IMG/VR virus record: IMGVR_UViG_3300017917_002108
Location: 64,001-128,000 of that record
DNA from: a virus
Reading direction: 5' to 3' (one strand)
Length of the DNA: 64,000 bases
Shown here: piece by piece, positions 10,356 to 13,669 of the stretch
How the letters are laid out: every line of letters starts with the position of its first letter
Numbering within the stretch: the first letter of the stretch is position 1
Translations under genes and position numbers: made by a program
The notes under the pieces: model-generated
What the model was told of the DNA's origin: nothing
The model's input: only the letters and a program-made list of their open reading frames with translations
Database searches by the model: none

Positions 10356-10694
10356 ATGCTACTAAAAGAAATGTTTAGTCCTATAGGGGCTCCTAAATCT
10401 GAGGAAGACGATATCGACTGGTTAGGCGATTTAAAATTTTTCATCGACAACGACAACGAAATGTTGAATAGATATTTTTTTCCTGCTGTCGAAAGACATA
10501 AAAAACATATAGGAAATCCCCATGCCTATAAAATCTACATCAGACCTTTAGAAAGTTGCCTAGAACAATATTGCGAAAAATACGAAGTTGAAGAACCGGA
10601 AACTAAATTTCCCAAAGAAAAAATCATCGAACTAGCAAAAAAAATTGCAGGTCAACAAGATTCTTTCCTAAACAAAGGCGATTATAAAAAATGA
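10356..10694 (+). CDS. hypothetical protein (MLLKEMF start)
   Basis: Start reassigned from 10227 to ATG 10356, just after the upstream stop. Confidence 0.7.
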   Translation: MLLKEMFSPIGAPKSEEDDIDWLGDLKFFIDNDNEMLNRYFFPAVERHKKHIGNPHAYKIYIRPLESCLEQYCEKYEVEEPETKFPKEKIIELAKKIAGQQDSFLNKGDYKK

Positions 10695-11935
10695 AACTGT
10701 TACAGTTATTCGAGGCTGAGACCGGAGGAAAACACATTACTTTCTGTTTTGGAAGATTGAATCCTCCGACTATAGGTCACGAACAACTGCTCGACACCGC
10801 ATCGAAGGTCGGGGGTGACTATAAGATTTTTGTAAGCCAAAGCCAGGATGCGAAAAAAAATCCGTTAGACTATGCAACAAAAATTAAATTTATCAAGTCT
10901 ATGTTTCCTCAACATGCAGCGCATGTGGTCGAAGACACTAGTTTAAATACCATAGTAAAAATTGCATCGTATCTATATGATCTAGGTTATAGAGATGCTA
11001 CCTATGTAGCAGGTAGTGATCGATTAGAAGATATGAAAAAACTTCTAACCCAGTACAATGGTGTAGAAGGTAAGGCACACGGTTATTATAAATTTGAAGT
11101 TCTTGATTTTGTTTCAAGCGGTGAAAGAGAAGATGGTGCTGAAGGTGTTGCTGGTGTCAGTGCATCTGGTGCTAGAGCGGCAGCGGCCAATAATGATCTA
11201 GCAGCATTTCAAGAGGCCACAGGTGCTGGAGATTTGGCTAAACCTTTATTTGATGCGGTACGAAAAGGTATGAAGATAGGAGAAAATATTTCAGAAGCTC
11301 CTATAGAAATGGATCCTGCTGACCCAATGGATCCTATGATCCATAGTCATGATAAGGCCAATCCTGCAAAACTAAAGTATAGGATGTTAAGAGCGGCAGG
11401 ACAGATAAAAGATCTTGCCAGCAGAGTCGACAACGCAAGCCCTAGCGAATGGCAATTAATGACTCGTCAATTTGACGAACTAAAAATGAATGTTGAACAA
11501 ATCCGACATGCTCTAGAAGAATTAGCCAAAGTACGTAAGAAAGGCGGTGTTCGCAGTCGCGGTATAGACAAATTTATCGATAGCGTAGAAGAAGGTTGGA
11601 AAAGTAAAGTGGCCGGTGCTGCATTAGCAGCGGCTAATCTTATTGCTCCTTCTGCTCAAGCAGAGGAACCAGAGAAACCAATTACTATTGCCTATGTTAA
11701 AATTGACGGCGAAGTAAGGAAATATAATTTAGGTGATAGATTCGCCAATGCTAAAGAAGCAGAAGAATTTATCAGCGGAGTATTATCTAAACAAGGCTTA
11801 CAAGGATATCAATTAGATATAAGACACGGATATCCTAAAAAGAAAGAAGTCAAAGAAGGATACGGACGTTATTGGTGCTCAACAGATAAGAAATGGAAAA
11901 CTCGTAAGGGTCCTAAACAGAGTAGAAAATCATGA
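10691..11935 (+). CDS. HIGH-family nucleotidyltransferase (cytidylyltransferase/NMNAT-like) fused to extra C-terminal modules
   Basis: FGRLNPPTIGH (HIGH-like), KNPL, VAGSDR and SAS motifs in the first ~195 aa; unrelated modules follow after ISE, VEE and VKE. Confidence 0.8.
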   Translation: MKLLQLFEAETGGKHITFCFGRLNPPTIGHEQLLDTASKVGGDYKIFVSQSQDAKKNPLDYATKIKFIKSMFPQHAAHVVEDTSLNTIVKIASYLYDLGYRDATYVAGSDRLEDMKKLLTQYNGVEGKAHGYYKFEVLDFVSSGEREDGAEGVAGVSASGARAAAANNDLAAFQEATGAGDLAKPLFDAVRKGMKIGENISEAPIEMDPADPMDPMIHSHDKANPAKLKYRMLRAAGQIKDLASRVDNASPSEWQLMTRQFDELKMNVEQIRHALEELAKVRKKGGVRSRGIDKFIDSVEEGWKSKVAGAALAAANLIAPSAQAEEPEKPITIAYVKIDGEVRKYNLGDRFANAKEAEEFISGVLSKQGLQGYQLDIRHGYPKKKEVKEGYGRYWCSTDKKWKTRKGPKQSRKS

Positions 11936-12729
11936 AAGCAAAAGAATTTATACCAGCAAGCAAGCCGCGTAATTTTGTAGCCAAGAATCAAAAAACTGCA
12001 GGTGCTGGCGCACACCGTGATAAAAAGAAAGAACAAAAGCAAGGCTACGAAAAACATAAAAAGCAAGGTGTGGCGGAAGGCTCAGAAGAGGATAGAGTTT
12101 TTTATGCTGTACAAGACCCTGACAAATCCTATCACATTTATTCAATAACAGGTAACATTACTGATTTAGATGAATTTCAAGGTAAGTTTGGTCGCAAGTT
12201 ATGGATAGAAGGTCCATTGTTTAATGTAGACAAGGCTCACCAAGCAGTTCATATGCATAAACAGAAGCAAGGTGTGGCGGAAGGCTCGGAAAATCTCGTA
12301 GCTGTCATCGATGGCGTGCGTAGCGATAGAACCTACAACGATAAAGACCATGCTCATAATTCACTAGGAAAGTTAGTAGCTTACGGCAAAGCCAAAGTAG
12401 CAGAATTATATATCGATGGCGAAAAAGTAGAACACTTTGAAATAGGTAAAAAATATTTAGATTTCGAACCAAAACAGTTAGAATCAAAGATGGCAGAAAG
12501 AATAAGAGATCCCGAAGACTGGGACGAAGGTAATACAGAACCACCGAATAATTTTGCTGTTTATATCAACGGTAAAAAATGGAAGGTATTTCAAGGCAAC
12601 GGATACTACGCTGACGACGAGCGTGAAATGCGTCAGTATTATAAACTACAAGATTGGGCTCGTAAAAAATCAGAAGCTACCGGTAAGAAGTGGGAAGTAT
12701 CACGCACCGGCGAACCGGCCACAGCATAA
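11932..12729 (+). CDS. modular protein with two KQGVAEGSE repeats
   Basis: 265-aa ORF; repeat visible in both protein and DNA. Confidence 0.75.
   Translation: MKAKEFIPASKPRNFVAKNQKTAGAGAHRDKKKEQKQGYEKHKKQGVAEGSEEDRVFYAVQDPDKSYHIYSITGNITDLDEFQGKFGRKLWIEGPLFNVDKAHQAVHMHKQKQGVAEGSENLVAVIDGVRSDRTYNDKDHAHNSLGKLVAYGKAKVAELYIDGEKVEHFEIGKKYLDFEPKQLESKMAERIRDPEDWDEGNTEPPNNFAVYINGKKWKVFQGNGYYADDEREMRQYYKLQDWARKKSEATGKKWEVSRTGEPATA
12061..12287 (+). repeat. 23-bp perfect direct repeat AAGCAAGGTGTGGCGGAAGGCTC (12061-12083 and 12265-12287)
   Basis: Two identical in-frame copies 204 bp apart; the sequences following each copy are unrelated. Confidence 0.95.
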
Positions 12730-12959
12730 TGGACGAATTAGCACAAATTAAACGTCTAGCCGGTATCAATGAATTTAAAGGCTATCAGCCTTATAATATC
12801 GAACAAGGTAGTAATATTAGTCTAACCGGAAATGAAAAAGGCGAACTAATGAAAAAACACGATATCAGACCAGGAACTCCGGAATGGTTTAAGTTATGGT
12901 TCAGCCTACCCTATCTAACCGGTGAGAAACCTATTGGGAACGATGAATGGTTACGATAA
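12729..12959 (+). CDS. hypothetical protein ([15 protein letters not shown] start)
   Basis: Start reassigned to ATG 12729 (TAATG coupling); [13 protein letters not shown] motif. Confidence 0.7.
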
Positions 12960-13270
12960 GTCCTTCTGCCAAGATAAAAATCACAGATCTTCTAGACGAA
13001 GAAAACAATCCAGATCTAAAATTACGAACATTTGTTCAGGGCGGTGGATGTTCAGGATTTCAATACGGTTTTACTTTCGATAATGAGCAAAATGACGACG
13101 ATTTCGAAATTATATTAGGACGTTGGAAAATATTAGTAGATGCTATGAGCATGCAATATATGACTGGTGCAGAAATAGATTATGTCGAAGATCTGCAGGG
13201 CAGTCAATTTGTTATTAGAAATCCCAACGCACAGACTACCTGTGGCTGCGGCAGCAGTTTTTCAGTATGA
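12947..13270 (+). CDS. erpA: A-type Fe-S cluster carrier ErpA/IscA (HesB family)
   Basis: [17 protein letters not shown] and [14 protein letters not shown] signature motifs. Confidence 0.93.
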
Positions 13271-13480: not shown

Positions 13481-13669
13481 ATGAAAATACGCGAGTTATT
13501 AGAAACAGCCACAGCAGGAGCAACATCTGCGGGCAATGTTTCAGTTGGAGTTGTTTATCCTAATAAGCCCGGAAAACAGCCCAAAAAGAAAAAAGATGGT
13601 ACTGCGCCTAATGCTTTAGATTTACCAGGGGTAAATCTGCTATCTGGCGGTTCTATTGTCAAAAGATAA
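13481..13669 (+). CDS. small hypothetical protein
   Basis: MKIRELLE|TATAGATSAG start; TAAATA 5 nt upstream. Confidence 0.7.
   Translation: MKIRELLETATAGATSAGNVSVGVVYPNKPGKQPKKKKDGTAPNALDLPGVNLLSGGSIVKR

Follow-up and report, generated by a model that had tools for sequence, protein, structure and literature searches.

Organization of the locus

We analysed a 64-kb window (64,000 nt) of a virus contig from IMG/VR that is 146.6 kb long and estimated to be 41% complete, and that would accordingly derive from a jumbo phage of roughly 350 kb. The DNA polymerase of the contig is nearest to those of PA5oct-type T4-related phages. The window contains a modular open reading frame (ORF) of 265 amino acids (Table 1) that follows a nucleotidyltransferase ORF (10691–11935; overlap at 11932–11935); on four other contigs (P0037, P0043, P0084 and P0115), the nucleotidyltransferase and the MKAKEFIP protein form a single fused ORF. 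An IscA/HesB-type Fe–S assembly gene lies at 12947–13270 within a cargo-like cluster, and is syntenic in G001 (L044 4067–4393), a near-complete relative of 353 kb.

The 265-aa ORF carries two exact plus-strand copies of the 23-mer AAGCAAGGTGTGGCGGAAGGCTC (window scan; Table 1), of which shuffled sequences predict none. The pair can be extended to a 27-nt match with one mismatch, and the spacing of 204 nt corresponds to 68 codons. Both copies are in frame and encode KQGVAEGS, and the segments 3′ of them are unrelated (BLASTP E = 4.1), as an earlier note on this DNA had described. The same note had called the GTG GCG codons of the repeat unusual for the genome, which contig codon usage confirmed (GTG, 15.8% of Val; GCG, 8.0% of Ala); the G+C content of the repeat is 61%, compared with 38.7% for the genome. 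If codons were drawn independently, the two copies of KQGVAEG would be spelt identically with P = 0.002. The repeat core (GG-TGT-GG-C-GG-AA-GG; 12064–12081 and 12268–12285) would fit a two-tetrad G-quadruplex pattern, and a putative Shine–Dalgarno-like AAGGTG lies inside both cores.

ATAAATA occurs 14 times on the plus strand of the 146-kb contig compared with about 42 expected (three-fold depletion), and usually lies 12–40 nt upstream of an ATG, including those of ORFs 8915, 13481 and 13706. The 64-kb window lacks the canonical T4 late promoter, TATAAATA, of which 9.6 copies would be expected, and the shorter ATAAATA gives the better fit. Depletion and placement of ATAAATA together suggest a probable late-promoter variant, NATAAATA.

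Table 1. Features of the modular ORF and its surroundings (window positions)
Feature	Position	Strand	Remarks
Modular 265-aa ORF	11932–12729	+	Start codon shares ATGA with the stop codon of the preceding nucleotidyltransferase ORF
N-terminal basic module DUF7230, aa 11–47	11962–12072	+	Pfam PF23876, E 1.3e-06
Junction repeat copy 1, KQGVAEGS (K44–S51), predicted coil	12061–12083	+	pLDDT < 50, residues 42–54
Mobile cassette 1 body, aa 52–111	12084–12264	+	With one linker, the 204-nt unit
Junction repeat copy 2, KQGVAEGS (K112–S119), predicted coil	12265–12287	+	pLDDT < 50, residues 91–118
Module 2, aa 121–170, compact beta-beta-alpha-beta-beta	12292–12441	+	AF2 pLDDT about 84; common to P0001–P0006
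Third junction, K-M-A-E↓R (AAG ATG GCA GAA), preceding the RDPEDWDEGN motif	12487–12498	+	
Conserved C-terminal module 3, aa 205–260	12544–12711	+	AF2 pLDDT about 90; invariant columns, alignment A2
ATAAATA boxes	8884, 13469, 13666 (also 530, 32886)	+	

Gene family and predicted structure

Database searches yielded 933 relatives of the 265-aa ORF at E ≤ 0.001. These have the N-terminal module (DUF7230) and a C-terminal module after RDPEDWDEGNTEPPNN in common, and differ in the number and kind of the middle inserts. Annotation of the N-terminal module returned only DUF7230 and two function-unknown PHROGs, and tblastn against 50,697 cultured-phage records gave no match to the ORF. At the junction after the N-terminal module, [VILM]-x-E is present in 89 of 120 relatives (74%, compared with 10.7% of random 12-aa windows), with VAE as the commonest form (41 of the 89); [VILM]-x-E-R precedes the RDPEDWDEGN motif in 67 of 116 homologues. 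An AlphaFold (AF2) model built from a 26-sequence alignment predicted three compact modules, with well-modelled residues 121–170 and 205–260 (Table 1) and low confidence for residues 55–110; both KQGVAEGS linkers fall in coil between the modules (pLDDT below 50). Foldseek searches against the PDB gave nothing significant (best match, the Dmd antitoxin, E = 0.77). For the small beta-beta-alpha-beta modules (12292–12711), the best, non-significant fold match was T4/RB69 Dmd (TM 0.50–0.57, target-normalised).

A junction word in other phages

The earlier note had proposed a search for further copies of the repeat, and these exist in other viruses and not scattered through its own fragment: no third copy was present in the 146.6-kb, 41%-complete contig with up to two mismatches allowed, and the 15-mer AAGGTGTGGCGGAAG was found in at least 120 viral contigs (viral contig scan). 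At 35 of the 120 loci listed, AAGGTGTGGCGGAAG is present in 2–5 copies on one strand. Among the matches listed, 96% of the copies fall in frames that stay open for 100 aa or more (median length, 548 aa). The copies translate as (K/E)(Q/E)GVAE(G/A/D) in highly diverse contexts, between unrelated modules. A control 15-mer specifying that peptide through the common codons GTA and GCA was found at 118 loci, all of them single copy. The consensus of 171 distinct contexts (AAG CAA GGT GTG GCG GAA GGC; K-Q-G-V-A-E-G) is exactly the window repeat; two of the codons in this 21-nt consensus, AAG and GGC, are minority choices, and its flanks are unconserved.

Spelling was fixed well beyond the level expected from codon usage. 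After one ascertaining copy per locus had been dropped, 58% of further GVAE sites had the GGTGTGGCGGAA spelling, compared with about 0.4% predicted; the share was 39% and 36% in loci ascertained otherwise (through the control word and protein homology, respectively). One-step neighbours of the word were also enriched (GMAE as ATG GCG GAA, 15 of 27; DVAE; and GVEE as GTG GAG), and the controls GVAD, GVAQ and AVAE showed no enrichment; these three and GLAE had ordinary codons. In 46 homologous-cassette alignments, for which subject loci had not been picked for the word, the four core silent sites were 88.6% identical compared with 69.7% at neighbouring third-codon positions. DPEDWDEGN, a strongly conserved peptide in the same proteins, is freely variable at silent sites. 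The DNA of the element is conserved beyond the requirement of the peptide, and these silent-site tests thus uphold the earlier view that the DNA sequence itself is conserved.

Near-complete relatives carry 0–8 copies of the word. Two jumbo contigs hold clusters of it, in each case on one strand: G002 (343 kb, 99% complete) has five copies at 162.9–181.2 kb and G005 has eight at 126–155 kb. In L152 (3029–7474), a polyprotein-like frame of more than 1480 aa combines GNAT acetyltransferase modules and many unknown modules with at least ten GVAE-type linkers.

Movement of the bracketed unit

Orthologues of the window ORF differ by whole repeat-bounded units, as had been anticipated from the two copies alone. 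Compared with the closest orthologues with DNA (L321 and L322, both of the single-linker form), the window ORF contains a clean 204-nt insertion. The cassette position is empty in P0001, P0002, P0004 and P0005, is occupied by a zinc-ribbon cassette between two GVAEGSE linkers in P0003 and holds a longer insert in P0006. In G001, the genes on either side of the syntenic orthologue are unchanged and the inner modules, with EEGVAEG and GMAEG as their boundaries, are wholly different. About 35 DNA alignments of relatives to the N-terminal module stop at 12026–12066 and alignments to orthologues restart at 12269, with breakpoints in the window at 12060–12066 and 12269; positions 12067–12268 were covered by none of the first 320 loci.

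A word-indexed search with residues 52–111 recovered the cassette in P0124 (90% identity) and P0125 (75%), which are otherwise unrelated to the window ORF and in both of which the cassette is GVAE-bounded. DNA identity between the linkers is 89.7% (L330) and 82.6% (L332), and drops to 27–41% immediately outside; cassette 1 thus occurs in three or more genes that are unrelated to one another. An exhaustive profile search with this cassette had given only cadherin-repeat matches, which we judged to be spurious, and it was the word-indexed search that provided the true relatives. Across the fetched loci, 8.8% of alignment ends fell within 10 nt of the word compared with 0.6% for random positions, and 108 of 545 internal alignments ended at the word. 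L193 carries a 150-nt cassette twice, in separate ORFs, with identity that begins inside the upstream linker and ends with the downstream linker; this cassette retains only the 3′ half of the upstream linker, the remnant expected of a crossover within the motif. The window repeats bracket a 204-nt unit that is a movable cassette, and the gain, loss and exchange of modules among relatives occur exactly at the junction element.

Proposed recombination at the junction element

Both window repeats are probably instances of an in-frame junction element that occurs throughout the family, joins small modules and has its spelling kept by short-homology exchange. In the mechanism that we propose, the element would join small, independently folding modules into cargo-like ‘beads on a string’ proteins, the carriers of which would be aquatic T4-related jumbo phages, and would give genes that are otherwise unrelated 15–21 nt of perfect homology that keeps the reading frame. 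The recombination and replication machinery of the phage itself could then join any two copies in frame, either by recombination over short homologies or by template switching; a recombinase of the RecA/UvsX type is encoded in relatives. If the window copies recombined with each other, exactly 68 codons would be lost with the cassette, giving the single-linker form of the nearest orthologues. Cassettes spelt according to the consensus would stay exchangeable, and the spelling would be kept fixed in this way; we infer that recombination at the word maintains the spelling of the word. Given that the contig has two copies only and near-complete relatives have 0–8, most exchange would have to take place from one genome to another. 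The pattern would fit recombination among the near-identical words of a pool, as far as such events can be read from sequence comparison. A length of 15–21 nt is short for efficient homologous recombination, which counts against this mechanism, and breakpoints at linkers would also be expected if selection retains only domain-preserving recombinants.

The conserved spelling could also have arisen by other routes. A passive flexible linker may have been kept for the protein alone, with the shared spelling reflecting the common descent of recently copied linkers; the location of the linkers in low-confidence coil between compact modules (AF2) and the existence of one-step spelling variants, as expected for decay from a founder sequence, agree with such descent. 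However, the same rare-codon spelling recurs in 171 unrelated contexts with dissimilar flanks, the core silent sites change about three times less than neighbouring ones in the same alignments, and DPEDWDEGN in the same proteins is under no comparable constraint at its silent sites, and we regard a passive linker as unlikely. The spelling could instead be kept by a function in RNA or translation, such as a ribosome pause at module boundaries (through rare GTG GCG or AAGGUG) that would help folding. Two rare codons are indeed fixed, the motif appears always to lie just upstream of a predicted module start, and AGGUG can pair with the anti-Shine–Dalgarno sequence. The other codons of the element are common (GGT and GAA), which makes it a specific word rather than a cluster of rare codons; moreover, no stable local structure forms, and a pause leaves the coincidence of homology breakpoints with the word without explanation. 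We therefore consider a translational role of this kind quite improbable.

A dedicated site-specific system (integron- or homing-like), the enzyme of which recognises an element of roughly 21 nt and inserts or excises cassettes, would account for the sharp definition of the element, its fixed strand and frame, and the discreteness of the cassettes. Several results argue against it. The tyrosine recombinase family PF00589 was absent from the 146-kb fragment, whereas the positive control matched 14 of 14 control genomes; neither site formed an attC-like hairpin (z = 0.11 and 0.54 for the DNA folds) or contained an inverted repeat; and the half linker of the L193 cassette is what a crossover inside the motif leaves. 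Insertion left no duplication signature either: in 65 adjacent in-frame pairs, the linkers flanking a cassette share 5.0 nt beyond the 12-nt core, compared with 4.7 nt in random pairs from different contigs, and cassettes thus generally arrive without a duplicated target. The window pair itself shares 11 extra nt, within the top 1% of random pairs, and both copies simply match the consensus perfectly. On the basis of the random-like linker similarity, the lack of an integrase in the 146-kb fragment and the lack of a hairpin at the sites, we rejected target-site duplication and an integron mechanism, and a dedicated enzyme of any such kind is very unlikely. The earlier proposal of an integron-like array is therefore retained for its recombination site for in-frame cassettes, which the breakpoints on the repeats and the recurrence in other genes support, and dropped for its mechanism. 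Two exact copies 204 nt apart could also result from local tandem duplication or an assembly artefact within one gene. Tandem duplication was rejected on account of the unrelated segments that follow the two copies, and the same architecture is present in independent assemblies from ENA, Logan and IMG/VR; we give this explanation almost no weight.

Possible cleavage at the linker

Beyond its role at the DNA level, the linker may be an exposed peptide that is cut by a T4-type prohead protease after Glu (V-A-E↓G), releasing the modules inside the head; we propose this only tentatively and lean slightly against it. Cleavage of V-A-E↓G by a protease like T4 gp21 is plausible by analogy, as the head proteases of T4-type and giant phages cleave after Glu at short motifs (PMC9026906, PMC5694885). 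In G001, G003 and G004, a Peptidase_S77 gene adjoins scaffold and gp23-type capsid genes, and the N-terminal region of the G001 capsid protein contains TLE33 and LAE41, both candidate sites near the position aligned with T4 Glu65. No Peptidase_S77 gene was found in the 146-kb, 41%-complete fragment. The N terminus of the window ORF (MKAKEFIPAS) has no Glu at positions 8–10, unlike the T4 capsid-targeting leader, which is about 10 aa long and finishes with hydrophobic-x-Glu; the first V-A-E corresponds to residues 47–49. G002 (99% complete) and G005 carry word arrays but had no S77 or gp23 match (Pfam), which counts against cleavage; the junction word seems to cross head-type lineages.

A junction of 21 nt that is dual-coded, serving both as an in-frame crossover point for strings of effector modules and as a cut site for release in the head, with the DNA word under selection in at least two jumbo-phage lineages, is a possibility that we consider doubtful; if true, it would amount to exon shuffling without introns for injected cargo.

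The small ORF at 13481–13669 begins with MKIRELLE-TATAGATSAGNV, which closely mimics LAE-SATAGATSAGNVATL, a segment in the N-terminal arm of the G001 capsid protein, which is of the gp23 type (L327, ORF 1345–2520). The small ORF may imitate the capsid arm or serve as a module for head targeting. Stretches of T/S-A-G-x-T-S-x-G-N/S-V and ends of the type ...GG(S/P)xxKR recur in the polyproteins of L095, L125, L193 and P0125.

Relation to known systems

We found no description of the junction element in the literature searched, and the closest known systems each share some of its properties. In T-even phages, the ‘His boxes’ of gp37 and the glycine-rich motifs of gp38 are conserved in-frame motifs at which recombination occurs (PMC3157838, Trojet et al. 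2011; Tetart et al. 1998, as cited in PMC3157838). As at the window locus, short conserved motifs separate variable segments that are exchanged between phages at the motifs. The adhesin motifs, however, belong to the structure of a single receptor-binding domain, in which versions of the same loops are swapped, whereas the junction word joins unrelated, independently folding modules in many genes and is fixed at silent sites with rare codons; its linker was modelled as low-confidence coil between modules and not as part of the structural core of one domain. The PeSL cassettes of T4-type phages, which recombine at promoter-early stem-loop repeats (Arbiol et al. 2010, PMC2839356; PMC4122927), are similar in that short repeated DNA flanks small units in hyperplastic regions, with gain, loss, replacement and excision between neighbours. 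PeSLs are intergenic and regulatory (a sigma70-like promoter and a terminator hairpin) and move whole genes; the junction element, in contrast, is coding, in frame and hairpin-free, and moves protein modules smaller than a gene. Integron cassettes resemble the window cassettes as discrete units with a recurring boundary site in variable arrays, but they are promoterless genes with an integrase and an attC hairpin, whereas here the units are in-frame modules within one ORF, with no integrase found in the 146-kb fragment and no attC hairpin at the sites.

On the protein side, the internal proteins IPI–III and Alt of T4 (PMC9026906) are likewise variable, non-essential cargo with a hydrophobic-x-Glu motif followed by a small residue. 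The leader of the window ORF (MKAKEFI) resembles the T4 internal-protein leader MKTYQEFIAE, and a T4-type protease is present in relatives. T4 internal proteins are, however, single proteins with one N-terminal cut (PMC9026906), whereas the window protein has several candidate internal sites and a leader without a terminal Glu. In phiKZ, 201phi2-1 and SPN3US, a large number of head and ejection proteins undergo cleavage after Glu at a short motif, sometimes at several sites (PMC5694885). The giant-phage motif, (S/A/G/T)-x-E, has a small residue at P3, whereas the window linkers have Val or Met; neither DNA-level conservation nor cassette exchange has been reported for the giant-phage sites.

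Recombination at conserved motifs was already known for tail-fibre segments and for whole small genes of T4-type phages. If unrelated modules are joined by one universal DNA word that keeps the frame, the modular evolution of phages would have a new layer below the gene. Among the matches listed, more than 100 contigs have the word with its silent sites fixed; it marks where modules move and offers a simple sequence handle for cataloguing them. Such a word would account for the assembly of diverse cargo-like proteins in large aquatic phages from one shared pool of mini-domains and, if it is also a head-protease site, would point to combinatorial sets of injected proteins.
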